Below are positions 8,470-51,110 of a stretch of 64,000 nucleotides of DNA, in pieces. Under the pieces are notes generated by a model. The model did no database searches and was not told the origin of the DNA. It worked only from the letters and a program-made list of their open reading frames with translations. Every line of letters begins with the position of its first letter. Position 1 is the stretch's first letter. A program made the translations under genes and the position numbers. Source of the DNA: a virus; the IMG/VR virus record IMGVR_UViG_3300030012_002034, positions 32,001 to 96,000 of that record; one strand, 5' to 3'.

Positions 8470-9143
8470 TATCTAAGAACATTTTGATTATCATCTGCAC
8501 CATTTGCTGGTACTTTCATAGTAGTAGTTAATTCTTGTATAACCATTTGCTCTACTTCAGCATACAAATATTCAGGAATACCCATTTGCTCATTTTGTCT
8601 TAAAGAGCATTTAGCAGGATCATCATCACAAAGGAATGGAGCTATACTTCCTTCAAAGGCTCCTTCTATTCTAACCGCATCCCATTCTAAATTTGGAAAA
8701 TATAAATATCCATTTAAAAACCAAAAGTAGAATCTATTATTATATTTAAACGAAGTTAATTTTGTCATTGATGTATAGGTACCGGGATCAGTTCTATATA
8801 ATTCAATTGATCCATCAAGTGAAGAAACTGTTCTAATTACAGGTCCATTTAACCCATCAAGAAATCCAGGCATTTTATATCTAGATCTTTTTATAATACA
8901 TCCTGATTGTATTCCTGCACAAGAAGCTTCTACTTTATCTACTTCTATAAGTTCTACATTTGGAAGAACATTAAATATAGAACTTAGTTTCATAAGTCTA
9001 TTATTAACATCTTCTCTTTTTATTAAAGCTTGTGCATATTTAATAATAGCATAGTAGATAGTTCTATCAGTTAAGAAAGGATCTTCTTTAACTGCTTTAA
9101 GAACATTTCTTACTCTTGATATTACTTGTCCTACCGTGGTCAT
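8469..9143 (-). CDS. Tail ring protein (crAss-like)
   Basis: 224 aa, NGYLYF motif and C-terminal DDNQN, between IHF-like and tubular protein genes. Confidence 0.65.
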   Translation of the reverse strand: MTTVGQVISRVRNVLKAVKEDPFLTDRTIYYAIIKYAQALIKREDVNNRLMKLSSIFNVLPNVELIEVDKVEASCAGIQSGCIIKRSRYKMPGFLDGLNGPVIRTVSSLDGSIELYRTDPGTYTSMTKLTSFKYNNRFYFWFLNGYLYFPNLEWDAVRIEGAFEGSIAPFLCDDDPAKCSLRQNEQMGIPEYLYAEVEQMVIQELTTTMKVPANGADDNQNVLR

Positions 9144-9676
9144 ATATCTTTATTTAATATGTTACTATCATAGAGAGCCCTAACTTTTTTTGTAGGTTCT
9201 ATTTCCATATATATTGGCCAATTATCAGAATACGCTTTGGATACATTTCTTTTAAATCCTCTGCATGCATCTAGTTTCCAATACTCTCTATGTTTAAATT
9301 GATACTTAGGAGCGTAGTTACTATAAAATATTTTAGCAAGCTTTCCATCTGTTTCCCAGTTTTTATTTCTTACTTTTATTCCATATTTAATTGACTTTCC
9401 TAAATCAATATTATTTTCATTATTAGTTTTACAAGTACCAATAAAAATCCATCCTAAACTTTCTGGAAGTTCAACTCCATCTCTATTGTTTATAACTTCC
9501 TGACAAACATATTTATTAAAGCTTTTTATAATTTGATATATCTCAGATGTTTTCTTTTCTTTATACTCCGGATACTTTTTAAAAAATCTTTTATAAAAAT
9601 CATCATTTATTATATGATGTACTTTTTTTCTATATCTTGGCGCTTTTAAGTCAGGTTTATTAAAACTTTTATCCAT
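9140..9676 (-). CDS. HU/IHF-like DNA-binding protein
   Basis: Helix then VELPESLGWIFI strand typical of the crAss-like IHF family; conserved position in tail module. Confidence 0.65.
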   Translation of the reverse strand: MDKSFNKPDLKAPRYRKKVHHIINDDFYKRFFKKYPEYKEKKTSEIYQIIKSFNKYVCQEVINNRDGVELPESLGWIFIGTCKTNNENNIDLGKSIKYGIKVRNKNWETDGKLAKIFYSNYAPKYQFKHREYWKLDACRGFKRNVSKAYSDNWPIYMEIEPTKKVRALYDSNILNKDI

Positions 9677-9734
9677 GCTACTTATTAATTAATATACTAA
9701 ATTTAAATGAGTTTAACAAGTATAAAGATAACAT

Positions 9735-9769
9735 AAAAAACAAAACCCCCACTTGTGTGAGGGCTTTGT
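9735..9769 (-). terminator. Rho-independent terminator
   Basis: Minus strand ACAAAGCCCTCAC-ACAA-GTGGGGGTTTTGT followed by a T run. Confidence 0.8.
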
Positions 9770-9806
9770 CCTTGTTAGTCACAGAACCAACAAAACTGCG
9801 ACATGT
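9735..9806 (-). ncRNA. Candidate 3'-UTR-derived small RNA (seed-loop hairpin plus terminator)
   Basis: Hairpin GUCGCAG-UUUUGUUGGUU-CUGUGAC (9778-9802); the loop is complementary to start regions of several late genes. Confidence 0.45.
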
Positions 9807-9808
9807 CT

Positions 9809-10360
9809 TTATCCAATTACTATAGCTCTTACTTTATCATAAGTAGAACCACTAGATAATGTTATTGTAATGTCTCCTGTACTACCATTTATAGTAATAT
9901 CAGTTGTAGCTTCAGCTGTCATTCTTTTCCAAGTTGTAGTTCCTGTAGTATAATAATAAACATCTATTGTAAAATCTACTTTATCTTGTACAGGAGTAAG
10001 ACCTCCGTTAGGAATAAAACAACCATCTTTTAAACCATTACAAGCAGTAAGCTCGGCTTGAGTAATAGTTATAGGTGTTCCTGATCCTGATGTTGCTAAT
10101 GAAGCCCACTCTTTAATAAATTTGTTAGTAGTGCTAGAACATATTAATGTTACAATGTTTGTAAGTGCTGTATCAATAAAAGTATTTTGAGGAACTATTG
10201 TATTAGTACCACATGCTAACGCAGAACCTGTGTATCTAGTACATTTAGCATCTACTACTTCTGAACACTGTACTGTTTCAGCACATGCCTCTGGATCTGG
10301 ACAAGGAGCTGGAGATGGTAAAAATTTATCATCACATCCGCATTTTTCACAATTTGTCAT
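9809..10360 (-). CDS. Cys-rich virion (fibre-associated) protein
   Basis: N-terminal C..C..YTG..L.C motif shared with the neighbouring 630-aa protein. Confidence 0.55.
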   Translation of the reverse strand: MTNCEKCGCDDKFLPSPAPCPDPEACAETVQCSEVVDAKCTRYTGSALACGTNTIVPQNTFIDTALTNIVTLICSSTTNKFIKEWASLATSGSGTPITITQAELTACNGLKDGCFIPNGGLTPVQDKVDFTIDVYYYTTGTTTWKRMTAEATTDITINGSTGDITITLSSGSTYDKVRAIVIG

Positions 10361-14150: not shown

Positions 14151-14309
14151 TTAAGTTGTTTCCTCTCTTCTTTTAATTGCTTTTAATTTTAAGTCTTCTT
14201 CATATTTAGATGCGCACATATTACATACTTTTGTGCCATCTGAAGCAGTTCTTAATTGACAACTACAATTCATTGTAGCTCCGCAGTTTGGACATCTTGA
14301 CGTTCCCAT
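14151..14309 (-). CDS. 52-aa zinc-finger-like protein (below ORF-track cutoff)
   Basis: MGTSRCPNCGATMNCSCQLRTASDGTKVCNMCASKYEEDLKLKAIKRREETT; fills the gap between two genes and has an AAAACCAACAAAC leader. Confidence 0.7.
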   Translation of the reverse strand: MGTSRCPNCGATMNCSCQLRTASDGTKVCNMCASKYEEDLKLKAIKRREETT

Positions 14310-14329: not shown

Positions 14330-14872
14330 TTAACAATTAGTACAATTCATCTTTCCTAATAACTTACACGCATAATTATATAATGTCATTCCTTTTTGAG
14401 GTTCATGACAATATTCTACTTTAGCTTTTGCTGCTTCAAGATACATTTTAATTAAACGTAATTGCTCCAGTTTTTTCTTTATATCAGCTGGAGGGTCACA
14501 AGCAGATACATCAATATCACACAATATTTTATTATATTTTATTAATGCATCAGTAATTCTTAAATGATTATAAGTAACAAATACTACATCATTTGGTGAT
14601 ACACTATATTTTATAATGTATACTCCATCGGGAAGATTAGCATATTTTTCACCGCAATCTTCTGTCTGTAGGTTTAAATCACAGGCAGTTATAGTTTTAG
14701 TAAAATTTTCTGTAACATTTAACTGTATAGAAAATCCATATCCAGGAACAGTAATATTTAAATGTGTACAGTTTACATCAATTAAACTTGAATAAACACT
14801 TGTATCTACAACTCTCATTATACATGAGTTCATAACTGTAGGCACTTCTAAACTTAATACGTGATTTGCCAT
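14330..14872 (-). CDS. Virion structural protein (tail hub-like)
   Basis: LPDGVYIIKYSV motif, Ig-like N-half with helical C-half; position after the auxiliary capsid gene. Confidence 0.55.
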   Translation of the reverse strand: MANHVLSLEVPTVMNSCIMRVVDTSVYSSLIDVNCTHLNITVPGYGFSIQLNVTENFTKTITACDLNLQTEDCGEKYANLPDGVYIIKYSVSPNDVVFVTYNHLRITDALIKYNKILCDIDVSACDPPADIKKKLEQLRLIKMYLEAAKAKVEYCHEPQKGMTLYNYACKLLGKMNCTNC

Positions 14873-19099: not shown

Positions 19100-20107
19100 T
19101 TAACTATTCCAAAATTTTTCACATTTAGTATTTAAATCACTAAGAATATCCTCATGTAAAGGGTTCTTAAGATACTCAACAACATCACTAACATTTCTGC
19201 CTAGTGCAGCATTTGTATCATTGTGATAAATATAACCATCACTCTTATTAACAATATACTTAAAAAAAACGGAATCTTTAACAATTGCCTTAATTTTTAA
19301 TGTTTCCATATTCATTTTGCATGCATCTAAGAATGAAGTTGCTGCTCTTTCTTTATTACTTTCAATACCTTGACCACTAATATAAATATCCATATTATCA
19401 TAAATAACATCATTTGGAGTATCTTTCTTATATAGTGTACTATGAGTATCTACTACTTTAGCAATATAAAATAACTTACTACTATTCTTATCAAATAATT
19501 TTTGTAGTTCAGAGTATGCTTTGTTTCTTAGTTTCTTATACTCTGTTCTTATCATTGCAGTATCTTCTTCTTTATCTAGATAAAACTTAGGCGGTACTGC
19601 TTGTGATCTTGCATCATCATAACTTTTTGCAACTAAGGAAAATCCTCCTGCTTCTATTGCATGAAACTTAATTCTATCATAAGGGTCTTTTAAATCTAGG
19701 TATACGGGTTCATTACCGCATTTAATTTCAATCTTATTCCAGAATTCAGCGTTATTAGGTTTTAATAAAGTTACTTTATTCCAAAAGTCTTTATCTTCTA
19801 TATCAATAACATTTGATGCTAATTCTTTTTCTAGCTCTGCTACTGTAGTTCTTATTTGTTTTATCTTAGCTTTCTTTGCATCTCCTGTTAATAATTTAAC
19901 TGCAGGTGCAAATTCATTTAATCCGGTAACATATCTTATAATACCGTTTTTTTCAATACATGCTAGTTGTTCCATATGTTTGACACCATCAAACATTGTT
20001 ATTCCATAATCCTCTAATCCCATATTTGAGACAGTAGGGTCAAAGTAAGGTTTAATTCTTACTTGTGTTTTCTTATTTGTTTTTGTAATTACTTGTGTAA
20101 ATGACAT
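19100..20107 (-). CDS. Conserved crAss-like protein downstream of MCP
   Basis: 335 aa, YVTGL...LEKEL...FW...LDLKDPYD motifs; VEYLKNP C-terminus. Confidence 0.7.
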   Translation of the reverse strand: MSFTQVITKTNKKTQVRIKPYFDPTVSNMGLEDYGITMFDGVKHMEQLACIEKNGIIRYVTGLNEFAPAVKLLTGDAKKAKIKQIRTTVAELEKELASNVIDIEDKDFWNKVTLLKPNNAEFWNKIEIKCGNEPVYLDLKDPYDRIKFHAIEAGGFSLVAKSYDDARSQAVPPKFYLDKEEDTAMIRTEYKKLRNKAYSELQKLFDKNSSKLFYIAKVVDTHSTLYKKDTPNDVIYDNMDIYISGQGIESNKERAATSFLDACKMNMETLKIKAIVKDSVFFKYIVNKSDGYIYHNDTNAALGRNVSDVVEYLKNPLHEDILSDLNTKCEKFWNS

Positions 20108-20126
20108 AATGTTGGTTTAAAAAATT

Positions 20127-20167
20127 AAAAAAAAGAAAATGGGGAGCAATGTCTACTCCCCGTTTTC
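20127..20167 (-). terminator. Terminator after major capsid gene
   Basis: GAAAATGGGGAG/CTCCCCGTTTTC inverted repeat with A-run on the + strand. Confidence 0.8.
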
Positions 20168-20176
20168 ATATATATA

Positions 20177-21813: not shown

Positions 21814-23082
21814 TTAAAATCGTTTAAAAAAATTATTTTTGTTTCTAGGAATACTCTTTTTCTTTGTAGTTCTAGAAGTTGTTTTCTTTTCCGGTGTTAC
21901 TGAGGATGTTATCTTTCTTGAAGACTCAGTCTTCAACATCCTTACAGTTTTTTCATTTGCCTTATTACTTCCTTGACTTTGAATCTTACTTCTGTATCCT
22001 TGAGGATCTGCAAGTAACCAAAGTGCTTCCGCAATAAGATCATGTCTTGGTTCTACATATTGGTATTTCTCTAACAAGTGTCCCAATAAATTTGTAGGTT
22101 TACCTGACATAGAAGGGTAACTAGGTTGAACTAAACCTGTGTATAAAAGTCCTTGTGTCTTTTTATCTAGTTTTACCTCTCCTAATTTACCTACAGATAA
22201 TGTATTATAAACATCATCCATATAAGCTCTTGCTGCATCTTCTTGTTGCTTTTTCATTTGCTCTTGTTGAGCTAACTGTCTAGCAACAATTTCTTCTTGC
22301 ATTCTATCTAACTTAGGTTTAAACTGATTAGCTTTCTTTTCTAGCTTTTCAATATCTCTCCATGTATCTATCTCTTCTTGAATTTCTTCAGGAGTTCCAA
22401 AGTTAGTAGCTGTTAAATACTGTCTTGCTATTTCAGCCTGGTGTTGCTCATTAGAAGGATCTAATTGAGTAACCTCTTCAACGTGTGCAAGAGTTCTAAA
22501 TAATCCCTTCATGTCAGTACCCCCATCTGCTACATATTTTGCAGCTATCTGAAGTTCTTGAGGAAGAGAGTTAAAAAATTCTTTAGGTGTATCCTGTCTA
22601 ATTTTTTCTTCTCTTTGTTGAAAGTTAGCTTCAAACAATTCTCTAAAATCTTTTGCTGTATAGTCCTCTATAGGTTTATCATCATCAAAAGGCATTAAAG
22701 AACCTTCTTCAATCATCTTATTAGCTAAGTCTGCAAGACCACTTTTATCCAGTCTACGTCTTCCTTTCCCTTCAGCATCTTCTTCCTGACTAATTAAATC
22801 ATCTAGTTCAGCAATTGCTTCTTCTGTCTGTTCTGCTATTACTTCATCTGAAACAGGTTTTTCTTCTGTTTCAGTTTCTGTTTTTGCAGGCTTGTCAATG
22901 AACTCAGTGTCAAACGGCTTTTCAGTCGCTAAGACATTTGTTGGTTTTTCAGTTTCTTCTTCTTTTGGTAGCATTACATTGCTTGCATCCGGGCTTGCAC
23001 CAAATATACTATCAATATCTACATCTACCTGACCTACCGTTGTAGTATCTTGTGTTTCCACATTAGTGTTTTCTTCACTCAT
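21814..23082 (-). CDS. Acidic scaffold-like protein upstream of MCP
   Basis: Acidic disordered N-terminus, coiled coil, basic C-tail ending NFFKRF; start revised to MSEENT. Confidence 0.7.
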   Translation of the reverse strand: MSEENTNVETQDTTTVGQVDVDIDSIFGASPDASNVMLPKEEETEKPTNVLATEKPFDTEFIDKPAKTETETEEKPVSDEVIAEQTEEAIAELDDLISQEEDAEGKGRRRLDKSGLADLANKMIEEGSLMPFDDDKPIEDYTAKDFRELFEANFQQREEKIRQDTPKEFFNSLPQELQIAAKYVADGGTDMKGLFRTLAHVEEVTQLDPSNEQHQAEIARQYLTATNFGTPEEIQEEIDTWRDIEKLEKKANQFKPKLDRMQEEIVARQLAQQEQMKKQQEDAARAYMDDVYNTLSVGKLGEVKLDKKTQGLLYTGLVQPSYPSMSGKPTNLLGHLLEKYQYVEPRHDLIAEALWLLADPQGYRSKIQSQGSNKANEKTVRMLKTESSRKITSSVTPEKKTTSRTTKKKSIPRNKNNFFKRF

Positions 23083-23182
23083 TTTTGTTGGTTTTAAATT
23101 ACTGTTACTATTAATATACAAATTAACTTTAAAATAAACTTAAGAAATTTAAAAATTTTTGATAAAAATCTGCACTATATAG

Positions 23183-23455
23183 CTATTTTATTTTTTTATA
23201 TAACTTTTCAAGCTCTTTTATATAAAAATTTCTTTCTTCTGATCTTACTAAAGCTATTTCTTTAATAAAGTTTTCTCTCTCTAAATGACATTGTTTTAAA
23301 AATTGTTCTCTTTCTTTATGCCATGTTTCACGTTCTCTTGTTGATCTATCAGATATCTCTTCAATTTTTCTAAGCAGCCACCTCTCTCTTGTAATAGCAT
23401 ATACTACCCAAACACCAAGAACTCCGTATTGTGTAAGTATATCAAAGAATTCCAT
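23183..23455 (-). CDS. Small membrane protein, BhlA/UviB holin-like
   Basis: N-terminal TM segment (QYGVLGVWVVYAI) followed by a coiled coil. Confidence 0.5.
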   Translation of the reverse strand: MEFFDILTQYGVLGVWVVYAITRERWLLRKIEEISDRSTRERETWHKEREQFLKQCHLERENFIKEIALVRSEERNFYIKELEKLYKKIK

Positions 23456-26209: not shown

Positions 26210-28411
26210 TTATTTTAAATTTTTAAAAGCTGACTTTTTAAAAACTTTGCCGTTAACCATTCTTCCTCTTCCCATATTGCGAAAAGGACTATATTTTAAT
26301 TTAAATAAATTATCTGACTTTTGCAAGTTTTTATTGACATCATCAGTGATAGTTCTTTTATTATAACCTCTATTAGAATTTTGAATTGTCATAAAGGCGA
26401 TTAGTGCTGTAAATGCTATTAAACGGTCAACATTGACTCCAGGTTGATATTCTCTCATTTCTTTTAAAAGCATTGGATCTGGTATTCTTTCTACACCATA
26501 CTTAGTTCTTACTATTGTACCATCTATTTTAGTTTCTACATCTAACTCTTCCCTAAGATATTCAATTGAGTAATTAAGTAAATGTCCTTTAAATAGATTA
26601 CCTGTGTTTCTCCAACCATATTCTTGATATACATTAGTATTAGAACCCAACTCTTTTAGAAATAATATTTGATTTTTAGGTACTAAATACTTTTGCTTTC
26701 TTTGAGATATCATATACTGAATAAATAAAGAAATGTTATTCTCTATTACTGTCCATGCATTATACCATTCTATAATCATCTCAAGTTTCTGATGTGTCTT
26801 CTTTAGATCATTAAATCTACCGCACCAGGCAGCTACAATTTTATCTGGTTCTATATAACTTTCATGTTCTCCATCATTTAATTTAGTTACTTCCACAGGA
26901 GCTTTCATAACATAAATGGAACAAAGAGACTCTGAGGTTGTGGTCTTGCCTGCTGATACAGGGTCAATAGAGGCATAGTAAGTTCCAAACTTAGGATCTT
27001 TTACTGGTCTTTCCCATACTACTAGCGCTCCTTCTTTATTCTCTGATCTCTTAGATATAGGAAACTCTTTTATTGGTTGTTTATTAGTTTCTTTAGCTTT
27101 TATATTAAATTTTTCATCACGGCTAAGTTCCAGTAGTTCATAAGCATATTCTTTTTCTTCTATTCTTTTTAACTGTGCTGCTAAAAGATTAGGAGGAAAT
27201 AAAGACTCTTTTCTGTATGCAAATGCCTCTTCTATATTTCTAGGATGTTGAGATATTCTTAACTGATATTGTTCAGGACTAAGTTCTTTTTTCCATTTTT
27301 CAAATTGATCATTTAAAGCTTCTAATGCTTCTTTAACTTGAGAATTACCATATTTATCTATAAATGGCGGCATAGACCATTGCTCAGGAATAAATAATCC
27401 TGATCTCCCTTCAGTATTTTTTTTATCTATAAGATTAGTTTCTACAGAATAAATATCATTCATTTCAGGATTAAGTATCATATCCTTTAATGGTTCACAC
27501 TGATCTAAGTCTCCTACTGAACCTGCCGCTATAAACACACCAGTTGTAACTAGTCCTGCTCTCATAGCAGGTCTTAGATATTCATATGTAGTATTCATCT
27601 TAGGTGCAATTCCCGCCTCCTCATGAAAGAAGAACTTAACAGGTCCCCCTACTCCAGTTGTAGGATCTTTTTCAAAAGACATACCTTGTATTGTACCTTT
27701 TAATCCTACTTGAGTTTTTCTACCTCCTTTTCTTACTTCAATCTTTTGTTGCCACATCATAACCTTTTCAGGATTCATAGGTCTATACCAGGCTGTATGT
27801 TCATTTAAAAATCCAGCGTATTCATTAAGAAACTTCCAAGATCCTTTTTCATTTATATAATCTTTTAGAGCGGCTCCTACTTTTAGAGTGACACCTTCTT
27901 CAAACCAAAGCTGATTTATAAGTTTAGCCATATGAAAGTAAGAAGATCCAAACTGTCTTTTCTTTAGTATTGCACAATGTCTATAATATATTTCTGCTAG
28001 TATTTCATATAATGCCATATGATATTGAGCATCTCTTAATTTAGGAAATCCAAACTTTTGTGTTTCTTTATCAAATATAGGAAGGAAGTTAAGAAACATA
28101 TAATAGTCTCTTGTAATGTACCAACTATTATCTCCGGATTTTACAATCAGACCTTTTCTACATTTAGCCTTCTCACCATCCCAGTATTTAATAAAATCTT
28201 TTGATTTAAACGGTGCAGTACAGTATACATTTTCTTGAGTAAACTTTACACCTTCTTTAATAAACTCTTCTGATGTTTTATCAAAGTTATATTGACCAGG
28301 TAATTTAAATAAACTAATAAGATATTCTCCAAATTCATCTCTGGAACTAAAAGAAGTTAAAGTAATTTCTCCATCTTCCCATGTAGGTATATCTTCATAT
28401 ATTTTATTCAT
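26210..28411 (-). CDS. terL: Terminase large subunit
   Basis: LKKRQFGSSY (Walker A-like), FFHEEAG (Walker B), SIDPV nuclease motif, NVDRL. Confidence 0.92.
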   Translation of the reverse strand: MNKIYEDIPTWEDGEITLTSFSSRDEFGEYLISLFKLPGQYNFDKTSEEFIKEGVKFTQENVYCTAPFKSKDFIKYWDGEKAKCRKGLIVKSGDNSWYITRDYYMFLNFLPIFDKETQKFGFPKLRDAQYHMALYEILAEIYYRHCAILKKRQFGSSYFHMAKLINQLWFEEGVTLKVGAALKDYINEKGSWKFLNEYAGFLNEHTAWYRPMNPEKVMMWQQKIEVRKGGRKTQVGLKGTIQGMSFEKDPTTGVGGPVKFFFHEEAGIAPKMNTTYEYLRPAMRAGLVTTGVFIAAGSVGDLDQCEPLKDMILNPEMNDIYSVETNLIDKKNTEGRSGLFIPEQWSMPPFIDKYGNSQVKEALEALNDQFEKWKKELSPEQYQLRISQHPRNIEEAFAYRKESLFPPNLLAAQLKRIEEKEYAYELLELSRDEKFNIKAKETNKQPIKEFPISKRSENKEGALVVWERPVKDPKFGTYYASIDPVSAGKTTTSESLCSIYVMKAPVEVTKLNDGEHESYIEPDKIVAAWCGRFNDLKKTHQKLEMIIEWYNAWTVIENNISLFIQYMISQRKQKYLVPKNQILFLKELGSNTNVYQEYGWRNTGNLFKGHLLNYSIEYLREELDVETKIDGTIVRTKYGVERIPDPMLLKEMREYQPGVNVDRLIAFTALIAFMTIQNSNRGYNKRTITDDVNKNLQKSDNLFKLKYSPFRNMGRGRMVNGKVFKKSAFKNLK

Positions 28412-28739
28412 AATGTTGTTGGTCCCAAAATTTCTTTAGTAACCTAGAACCACATTCTGTATTTTCTATTTCTCCAAGCAATGATCCAAATATTTTATTT
28501 TCTTTAAGAAGCCTTCTATTTTCTTTTTCTGTTAAATATAGTTCATATTGTATATCTCCAGCATCTTTTCTAATTATTTCAATCTCTTCTTCTAAAAGCT
28601 TATAATCTTTTAAAGATACTGTATTACTTTTTGTTTTTACAGGTTCTTTATTTATTATAGAAATTATAAAGAATAAAATAATAGATACTATAATTCCAAT
28701 AAGAAGTAATACTATTCTTAACTTTATTTGGTTATTCAT
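28404..28739 (-). CDS. Membrane-anchored coiled-coil protein
   Basis: N-terminal hydrophobic helix. Confidence 0.6.
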   Translation of the reverse strand: MNNQIKLRIVLLLIGIIVSIILFFIISIINKEPVKTKSNTVSLKDYKLLEEEIEIIRKDAGDIQYELYLTEKENRRLLKENKIFGSLLGEIENTECGSRLLKKFWDQQHYE

Positions 28740-31376: not shown

Positions 31377-31732
31377 TTAGCTAAAAACTTATAGTCAAGT
31401 AAAATACTTCCATCTGTTTGTATTTTTAATTTTTTATTCAAACTAATAATCTTTTTATTCTTTCTATCTTTTATTACTAGTTTGTTCTTTGCACATTTAT
31501 TAATACAGTTCCTTACTGTTTGTTGCGATTTAAATATTTTATATTCCTCAGCTGCATCATAACAAAAATCAGTAAGTTCAATTGGTCCTGATTCACTTAA
31601 TAATGTTAAACATTCTAATTCAGAATTACTCACCGCTATACTATTTATATAACAGTGAGTTAATATCTGATATTTAATGATATCTTTTTTAGACATCACT
31701 ACACGCTTTTGTACCTGATTTACAATAGCCAT
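31373..31732 (-). CDS. Winged-helix DNA-binding protein
   Basis: SQQTVRNCINKCAKNKLVIK wHTH-like segment. Confidence 0.55.
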   Translation of the reverse strand: MAIVNQVQKRVVMSKKDIIKYQILTHCYINSIAVSNSELECLTLLSESGPIELTDFCYDAAEEYKIFKSQQTVRNCINKCAKNKLVIKDRKNKKIISLNKKLKIQTDGSILLDYKFLAK

Positions 31733-32010
31733 TATTTTTTCTTAAGCGTTCTTTTTTTTGGCTGAGATTTCGTTTGGGGCTCTTCTTCCATTTCTTCAGG
31801 TGGATTCATCATCATTGCAAACTGCATTTGAATCTGAGCTCTTTTAAATCTCACTTCATCTAGCTTCATAAGAGTCTCTTCATATTTGTGTTGAGCATCT
31901 AAATAAGGAATAGATTCAGTGTAAAAGTCTAGCATTTCTTTTTTCTTTTTTGCTAGTTCTTCTGGAGACATTTGCTCCATTTCTTGTTCTGTTGGTTCTG
32001 CTGTTATCAT
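31732..32010 (-). CDS. Hypothetical coiled-coil protein
   Basis: 92 aa, preceded by TATATTTG promoter box. Confidence 0.7.
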   Translation of the reverse strand: MITAEPTEQEMEQMSPEELAKKKKEMLDFYTESIPYLDAQHKYEETLMKLDEVRFKRAQIQMQFAMMMNPPEEMEEEPQTKSQPKKRTLKKK

Positions 32011-36912: not shown

Positions 36913-36959
36913 GTTATAATTTTTTCAGATAATATATATAATAATATACAAAAAACTTT

Positions 36960-40708: not shown

Positions 40709-40760
40709 AATTTCTTTTTTTTAAATACGTATACAACTAATATACAAAAAAATTTTGATA

Positions 40761-50424: not shown

Positions 50425-50610
50425 ATGAAAAAGTCTAATGATTTAGGCTGCTATCTTATGATGGTTAGCTATATGTATTTAGTATTTACACAAGTATTTG
50501 CTTTATATTTTTTTTGGGAATATTATAGCACTCATTCCTTTTGGAATTCAATAATATTTGGTAGCTTAGTAGCTGAGATCAAAGGATTATTATTTCCATT
50601 TTTTATATGA
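50425..50610 (+). CDS. Small membrane protein
   Basis: Hydrophobic 61 aa. Confidence 0.55.
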   Translation: MKKSNDLGCYLMMVSYMYLVFTQVFALYFFWEYYSTHSFWNSIIFGSLVAEIKGLLFPFFI

Positions 50611-51110
50611 ACCAACAATATTCCATGCTGGATGTAGTACAAGAATTAAGACAATTAGTACCTACTAAAGTTACAAGAAAAAGAGTTTATTTAGATAGAA
50701 GAAACTATCTTATATGTATATTATATTACAAGTTTAAATGCTCAGAAGAGTATATTGCAAGTAATCTAAATGTAAAAAGGTGTTCTGTGACTCATGCTAA
50801 GAGACAGCCTATATATCTTGTTAAATCAGGTGATCCTTTATTTCAGAAAAATGTTTTAGAATTACAAAAGAAATATCCTTATGAACTCCCTAAAACAGAT
50901 GCTCCAATAGGTAAAGGTAGAAAGAAAACAAAAACAATATTTTTAGACACTGAAACTTTAAATAGAATACAATCATTTAAAGAAAAATTTCATGTTGATA
51001 ATACTAGATCTGCATTAAGATTACTTATTGATTTAGGTTTAGATAAAGTTGAAAAAGGGAATATAACATTTGAAGTGTTATGGAAAGCTAAAAAGAAAAT
51101 TAATAAATAA
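50607..51110 (+). CDS. DNA-binding protein (DnaA C-terminal HTH-like plus possible RHH)
   Basis: TRKR.Y..RR...IA..LN....SVTHA pattern. Confidence 0.5.
   Translation: MNQQYSMLDVVQELRQLVPTKVTRKRVYLDRRNYLICILYYKFKCSEEYIASNLNVKRCSVTHAKRQPIYLVKSGDPLFQKNVLELQKKYPYELPKTDAPIGKGRKKTKTIFLDTETLNRIQSFKEKFHVDNTRSALRLLIDLGLDKVEKGNITFEVLWKAKKKINK

Follow-up and report, generated by a model that had tools for sequence, protein, structure and literature searches.

A short hairpin lies between the stop codon of a gene in a tail-fiber-like block and that gene's terminator, and its loop is complementary to sequences immediately before the start codons of several late genes on the same strand; is this complementarity the mark of a regulatory RNA encoded by the phage, and if so what would such an RNA do? 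The window, by which we mean the whole 64,000-nucleotide stretch of DNA analyzed, comprises bases 32001-96000 of a 107-kb IMG/VR virus record and has a G+C content of 31%. The features in and around the hairpin, in the order in which the minus strand is read, are:

9809..10360, minus strand: parent gene of the hairpin, encoding a 183-amino-acid Cys-rich protein of the tail-fiber-like block
9778..9802, minus strand: RNA hairpin with a 7-bp stem, GUCGCAG/CUGUGAC (one G-U pair), and an 11-nt loop
9802-9796, minus strand: 5' arm of the hairpin, GUCGCAG
9795-9785, minus strand: loop UUUUGUUGGUU, the candidate seed, with a core UU(G/A)UUGGUU that is unchanging across the phage group
9784-9778, minus strand: 3' arm of the hairpin, CUGUGAC
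9735..9773, minus strand: strong intrinsic terminator common to the upstream gene and the hairpin (stem 9773-9736, U tract to 9735)
9717..9724, minus strand: TATACTTG, a TAnnTTTG-like box (Bacteroidota -7 type) for the next gene, 9140..9676

The TAA codon of gene 9809..10360 occupies positions 9811-9809, the hairpin begins 6 nt further on, and the terminator follows 4 nt beyond the hairpin's 3' arm on the minus strand. RNAfold predicts both the hairpin and the terminator (z = -4.45 relative to shuffled sequences). The minus-strand hairpin that a preliminary description of this DNA had proposed between stop codon and terminator was found where it had been placed. TAnnTTTG is the Bacteroidota -7-type promoter consensus, and in relatives the position of the TATACTTG box holds TATATTTG or TACATTTG. 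The top scores against the Rfam 15 covariance models were 22.6 bits, compared with a cut-off of 55, and came only from generic leader and terminator models; literature searches returned no report of the hairpin element.

The hairpin is a single-copy, syntenic element in well over 150 IMG/VR and metagenome contigs of crAss-like phages, and relatives of the 183-aa protein reach down to 37% identity. In 15 related loci the intergenic region forms an island of conservation, with column identities of 0.92-0.97 compared with 0.67-0.80 in the coding flanks, and the stem variants found in close relatives are changes that keep the pairing. (The idea that this island is a recombination linker was discarded, as it does not explain a loop that is more conserved than the terminator and the stem.) An exact-pattern scan of IMG/VR returned 96 stretches, 94 of which are the hairpin element, and a control scan in which the loop was left unconstrained gave the identical loop in 61 of 62 matches. 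Searched with a covariance model, seven complete or near-complete genomes each gave a single strong copy, whose stem was new and whose loop was unchanged. Two more sets of 80 loci, which were anchored on neighboring conserved proteins and whose queries were alignments only 37-48% identical to their own first sequence, carry the loop (U)UU(G/A)UUGGUU(UU) on wholly different stems.

The layout in the 94 non-redundant elements is stop codon, hairpin, spacer, sequence-variable terminator and promoter-like box; the gene before the element is homologous to 9809..10360 in 51 of them, and the one after it to 9140..9676 in 60. Across relatives the spacer between hairpin and terminator measures 4-14 nt and is semi-conserved in sequence, and the terminator differs in sequence with compensatory changes present. 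Two distant relatives have an extra gene of 390-430 aa between the hairpin-terminator and the homologue of 9140..9676 (G007:24666-25958 and G008:26893-28074), so what the element marks is where the upstream unit ends, not where a fixed downstream gene begins.

On which strand is this structure selected? The G-U pair of the window's hairpin becomes A-C if read from the opposite strand, and the preliminary description had taken this single pair as a sign of minus-strand RNA. The relatives bear this out on a larger scale: among at least 25 distinct helices (of at least 5 bp) 21 include G-U pairing, and of the 185 stem pairs 34 are of this kind and would be mismatched on the plus strand, which also disfavors the alternative raised earlier that a plus-strand copy acts as a decoy. 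When the sequences are aligned by fitting them to the model, each of the six stem pairs shows changes in both partners, and 96.7% of the cells are paired, compared with 43-51% when the partners are slid. The loop core stays constant while stems, spacer and terminator vary, and the putative seed is thus more conserved than the rest of the RNA. Comparison of the sequences establishes the RNA structure, its strand and the invariance of its loop: the hairpin is a real, strand-specific and deeply conserved RNA structure by this measure, and the loop is its constrained part.

The sites in the window to which the loop is complementary are the following:

23083..23093, minus strand: AACCAACAAAA, leader of the scaffold-position gene 21814..23082, immediately 5' of its ATG at 23082; an 11-nt perfect complement of the loop
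14312..14321, minus strand: AACCAACAAA, leader of the 52-aa Cys-rich gene 14151..14309, 2 nt before its ATG at 14309
20110..20117, minus strand: AACCAACA, leader of the post-capsid gene 19100..20107, 2 nt before its ATG at 20107
31987..32000, minus strand: CAGAACCAACAGAA, inside the 92-aa gene 31732..32010 (codons 4-8); loop and 3' arm together give 14 bp, one of them G-U
28416..28423, minus strand: ACCAACAA, at -12 of the large terminase gene 26210..28411; a weaker, lineage-specific candidate
22937..22946, minus strand: an internal AACCAACAAA within the scaffold-position gene, kept in the closest relative only
50610..50618, plus strand: AACCAACAA, codons 2-4 of 50607..51110; a doubtful site, not seen in relatives

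The hairpin and the complementary late-gene sites are all on the minus strand and inside the late block, and the three leader sites and the 14-bp site over the 92-aa gene are as the preliminary description gave them. Two of its further pairings were present in the window and went no further than close relatives: the internal scaffold-position site is probably non-functional, and the extension of pairing into the 3' arm, like that internal site, was not found to be conserved beyond close relatives. No conservation of the plus-strand site at 50610..50618 was found in relatives.

How much do such matches mean in one genome? AACCAACA occurs 10 times in the window against 2.2 expected, and the 11-mer complement of the loop, with at most one mismatch, 11 times against 3.1; none of 100 shuffles reached either count. 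When the letters of the loop were permuted, 27% of the U8G3 loops matched at least five start regions over at least 8 nt and 9% matched at least three over at least 9 nt. Match counts from a single genome are weak evidence, because U-rich loops readily match A-rich leaders, and the single-genome count was dropped as an argument when the permutation test was not significant at 8 nt. Since that count is not decisive, significance is taken from the comparison with relatives.

Nearly all of 59 loci surrounding the post-capsid gene (protein identity 51-97%) have AAAACCAACA(A)n-ATG ahead of this gene, often as two tandem copies. AACCAAC is present in these loci 219 times in the sense and 68 times in the antisense orientation; of the 219 sense copies, 132 are found ahead of an ORF start at a distance of 16 nt or less, and these, with one exception, belong to three gene families, being start-proximal at the post-capsid gene in 56 of the 59 loci, at the scaffold-position gene in 53 of the 59 and at the small Cys protein gene in 19. 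The wider family has an unchanging leader core, AAAACCAA, of which the next base is C, U or A. Over all genes of five genomes, AACCAAC is the most enriched 7-mer in the -25..-1 interval (22 observed, 0.64 expected). The question of motif frequency at starts relative to background, which the preliminary description had raised, can be answered directly: AACCAA is present in 211 of 241 leaders (88%) of the three families and in 22 of 734 (3%) of other genes. It lies within -14..-10 of the ATG in the three families, and its first base peaks at -13..-11.

Loop and targets are also conserved together. When the start regions of six genomes (102-142 genes each) were ranked by RNAduplex against the loop, the same three orthologous groups came out on top, with mean predicted-target ranks of 2.3 for the post-capsid gene, 2.5 for the scaffold-position gene and 5.7 for the small Cys protein gene. 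The 92-aa gene 31732..32010 ranks 2-6 in four of the six genomes; in the distant relatives G004 and G006 its motif lies at +10/+11 in another reading frame and encodes other amino acids, which shows that selection acts on the nucleotides. The large terminase site 28416..28423 ranks 2-3 in G000 and G001 only. Across the whole phage group, then, sequence comparison establishes that a leader motif complementary to the loop is conserved before orthologous head-module genes, in position and in gene specificity.

Are loop and leader motif linked to each other? Part of the evidence comes from one clade. The hairpin is absent between the homologous stop codon and terminator in G017, G018 and G020, and the loop is degenerate in G019; apart from the G019 remnant no other hairpin copy was found in these four records, two of which are 94-97% complete. 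Relocation of the hairpin was considered and set aside: the sense copies of UUGUUGGUU that were checked (one each in G017, G019 and G020, none in G018) are all in coding sequence. In this hairpin-less clade AACCAA is kept in only 3 of 12 leaders, with substitutions that differ from record to record, and the association of hairpin loss with leader loss has a Fisher p of 3e-6, a value that rests on one clade and ignores kinship. The joint loss is plain in the sequences, and these leaders look like the product of decay that followed the loss of a partner.

Finer covariation, which the preliminary description had suggested looking for as compensatory loop/target changes, proved ambiguous. In a clade with a G-to-A change in the loop (G008, G012, G013, L205, L239) the C-type leader base is found in 0 of 35 cases, compared with 15 of 56 for those genomes in the set that have the G loop, and its absence is what pairing would require. 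L349, which combines the A-variant loop with a C-type leader, is a counter-example. The loop variants UUUAGUUGGUUU, UUUGUUGGUAUAA and GAAGGUUGGUUUA are mirrored in leaders only in part, GAAGGUUGGUUUA in one of the three leaders seen. A claim of covariation, to which G008, G012 and G013 had seemed to point, was rejected because of L349 and the GAAGGUUGGUUUA count, and clean compensatory changes were not found among the relatives compared, the 8-nt core being invariant on both sides. G007 retains the loop though its post-capsid leader lacks the motif.

We propose that the hairpin is part of a 3'-UTR RNA at the operon's end that pairs through its loop with these leaders, probably repressing their translation, and, judging from the comparisons above, we regard this as the reading with a reasonable balance of probability in its favor. 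The gene block runs from head genes to tail-fiber-like genes with the RNA at its 3' end, and the last ~75 nt of the virion-gene-block transcript would be the hairpin, which would display the U/G-rich, unchanging loop, followed by the terminator. The active form could be the whole mRNA or a stable or processed 3' fragment (hairpin plus terminator, ~75 nt). The loop would base-pair with AAAACCAA(C/U)AA over no fewer than 8 nt (as many as 11 nt in the window genome), and the paired region would span about -13 to -3 relative to the start codon in a limited and constant group of late genes: the scaffold-position gene, the gene after the major capsid gene and the small Cys-rich protein gene, with the first codons of the 92-aa gene as an extra target in the window's lineage. 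Such pairing would cover the region where the 30S ribosome lands on mRNAs that have no Shine-Dalgarno sequence, so the most likely effect is lowered translation; and since the RNA would be made only once transcription reaches the end of the block, it would give delayed feedback on the head-assembly genes. That the two RNAs meet and pair in the cell, with repression as the outcome, is what we infer from these patterns. The preliminary description had likewise read the hairpin as a 3'-UTR-derived RNA that dampens translation of head-assembly genes, an interpretation that is partly supported overall; the coupling of tail output to head output that it added is conjectural.

The alternative that fares best, although we consider it unlikely, holds that hairpin and leader motif are two unconnected RNA elements. 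Each would be recognized by a protein, or both by different surfaces of a single regulator, the hairpin-less clade having lost what recognized them, and their complementarity would be incidental. The leader might then be a translational operator, and the hairpin, beside the terminator, might for example serve in binding, processing, stabilization or antitermination. As separate readers would allow, the 5' half of the loop is conserved even where the leader bases opposite it differ (C, U or A), so that a further constraint, such as a protein, U-turn geometry or additional targets, likely acts on the loop as well. The ambiguous covariation and the constant position of the hairpin 4-14 nt ahead of a terminator are likewise in keeping with separate elements, and one target is a small Cys4 protein that could itself bind RNA (it has a weak Zn-finger match). 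However, this explanation has to ascribe to coincidence a match of 8 nt or more, CC/GG core included, between the loop that is most conserved and the leader 7-mer that is most enriched, of which the unchanging loop is the exact complement, and it would need an unseen common factor to account for leader decay alongside hairpin loss; protein searches (PHROGs, Pfam, PDB) found no candidate RNA-binding protein.

Alternatively, AACCAA(C)A might act as double-stranded DNA, bound by a transcription regulator of phage or host and placed in opposite orientations at late-gene starts and at the block's end. The motif is indeed present in both orientations, both copies are altered or lost together in some clades, and antisense copies in the window also exceed the dinucleotide-shuffle expectation. 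A DNA site would leave unexplained, however, why only one copy is surrounded by a stem with G-U pairs and full compensatory replacement, why orientation is strictly sense at the gene starts, why the spacing of -13..-11 to the ATG is kept even where the site is inside an upstream ORF or after a terminator, and why the site of the 92-aa gene is downstream of the ATG; we find it quite improbable.

A third explanation takes the leader motif as a Shine-Dalgarno substitute that recruits ribosomes by pairing with a host RNA, and the loop as a competitor that mimics the host sequence. The motif's spacing is tight and Shine-Dalgarno-like, no gene of the window genome is preceded by a Shine-Dalgarno sequence, and the loop heptamer GUUGGUU (window 9785-9791) equals a common tRNA D-loop sequence, a resemblance that could hint at mimicry or be coincidence. 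But the motif is found at only 3-4 of ~110 genes, the major capsid gene is without it, and a useful enhancer would not be expected to decay upon loss of the hairpin, so that this explanation too is decidedly improbable. Chance complementarity between a U-rich loop and A-rich leaders, with which the non-significant single-genome permutation test at 8 nt agrees, is negligible as an explanation for two elements that are conserved, gene-specific, complementary and jointly lost across hundreds of contigs.

Returning to the proposed pairing RNA, several known systems share parts of its design. CpxQ, SroC, DapZ and RaiZ are 3'UTR-derived base-pairing sRNAs of enterobacteria, and the phage hairpin resembles such RNAs in its place after a stop codon and ahead of the intrinsic terminator of that gene, in having a short seed more conserved than its surroundings, and in the complementarity of that seed to translation-initiation regions of several mRNAs, conserved in orthologues. 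It differs from them in being encoded by a lytic-type phage and apparently aimed at the phage's own virion genes, and in that the putative seed would be presented in a hairpin loop and not as a single-stranded 5' stretch; the likely host phylum, Bacteroidota, is also not known to have Hfq. The c4 antisense RNA of phages P1 and P7 (immI operon) is made in the same transcription unit as its target, and its loops pair with the ribosome-binding region and block translation. Like c4, the hairpin is phage-encoded and has a loop complementary to ribosome-binding regions of genes transcribed in the same direction; c4, however, lies upstream of one target and controls immunity, whereas the hairpin is at the 3' end and would have 3-4 assembly-gene targets on mRNAs without Shine-Dalgarno sequences, and Rfam gave no match that would indicate homology to c4. 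In the icaR mRNA of Staphylococcus aureus a 3'UTR motif pairs within the same molecule with the mRNA's own Shine-Dalgarno sequence. The phage element, too, is a 3'UTR element complementary to ribosome-binding regions, and the whole mRNA may act unprocessed; its candidate targets, unlike that of icaR, are several cistrons up to 22 kb away with non-Shine-Dalgarno leaders.

The lambda nut boxB and HK022 put hairpins are promoter-proximal, modify RNA polymerase and are not complementary to gene leaders. The hairpin studied here shares with them the character of a conserved phage RNA hairpin near terminators with a sequence-specific loop, but it is at the very end of the operon, 4-14 nt before the terminator with a semi-conserved spacer, and protein searches identified no dedicated antiterminator protein. 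By these comparisons it would work like the 3'UTR-derived seed-pairing sRNAs and P1 c4, while standing outside every RNA family described in Rfam. Bacteroides thetaiotaomicron sRNAs such as GibS and MasB (PMC7366714, PMC10994844) come from the likely host phylum and are reported to act on start regions of mRNAs without Shine-Dalgarno sequences; they differ from the phage hairpin in being host-encoded, stand-alone genes, and they have no sequence or Rfam relationship to it.

A broader proposition, which we put forward tentatively as plausible rather than probable, is that this is a phage-encoded post-transcriptional regulon kept throughout a lineage of uncultured crAss-like Bacteroidota phages, in which a multi-target, end-of-operon feedback RNA shuts a AAAACCAA leader operator on 3-4 head-assembly genes. 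Little is known about regulatory RNAs in lytic phages, and our Rfam and literature searches found none for crAss-like phages or for phage virion-assembly genes. If the regulon exists, the phage would have an RNA-based timer or stoichiometry control, and the operator, sitting at the Shine-Dalgarno position, would form with its repressor RNA an orthogonal pair for hosts without Shine-Dalgarno sequences. If the pairing itself is real, it would establish a new family of RNAs together with a defined and conserved regulon of several genes, provide evidence on translation control of mRNAs without Shine-Dalgarno sequences and a landmark for annotating hundreds of uncultured phage genomes, and offer a compact seed/operator pair as a candidate tool in Bacteroidota. 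Because one clade has lost hairpin and leader motif together, the idea lends itself to a direct test.

The host probably belongs to the Bacteroidota, because Shine-Dalgarno sequences are lacking and TAnnTTTG boxes follow the terminator in most relatives. No cultured relative was found by DNA or post-capsid protein searches of a phage collection; the major capsid protein is 29% identical to that of Leptolyngbya phage Lbo-JY46 and 26% identical to those of Cellulophaga phi17:2 and phi4:1. The head genes are ordered large terminase, portal, scaffold-position gene and major capsid protein. Sequence searches of PHROGs, Pfam and PDB yielded no annotation for the target proteins. The AlphaFold model of the post-capsid protein (19100-20107) is poor (pLDDT 62), with only its C-terminal ~150 residues confident and mostly helical, and Foldseek returned nothing significant with it, the weak matches being to the RecA C-terminal domain (E 0.2-0.9).

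Several other observations were made along the late block. The major capsid gene has its own terminator (window 20108-20176) and the post-capsid gene starts ~30 nt later with its AACCAACA leader, so the post-capsid gene must be translated from read-through transcripts. A 90-aa ORF (23183-23455) between the portal and scaffold-position genes is missing in the closest relative, G001, where the flanks join directly, and it is therefore a recent insertion or deletion. Two of the records compared contain the head module twice, in diverged copies: in G003 (L293-L299) this concerns the scaffold-position and post-capsid genes, and in the 246-kb IMG/VR 3300030098_004828 (L221, L238) the 14330..14872 homologue and its flanks; both are probably concatenated or chimeric assemblies of two related phages. 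Finally, a TTTGTATATTA-like repeat lies 25-45 nt upstream of several starts, including that of the scaffold-position gene (23115-23135, 36913-36950 and 40709-40750), and may serve as a phage promoter element; the leaders of the five genomes are enriched in GTATATT as well.
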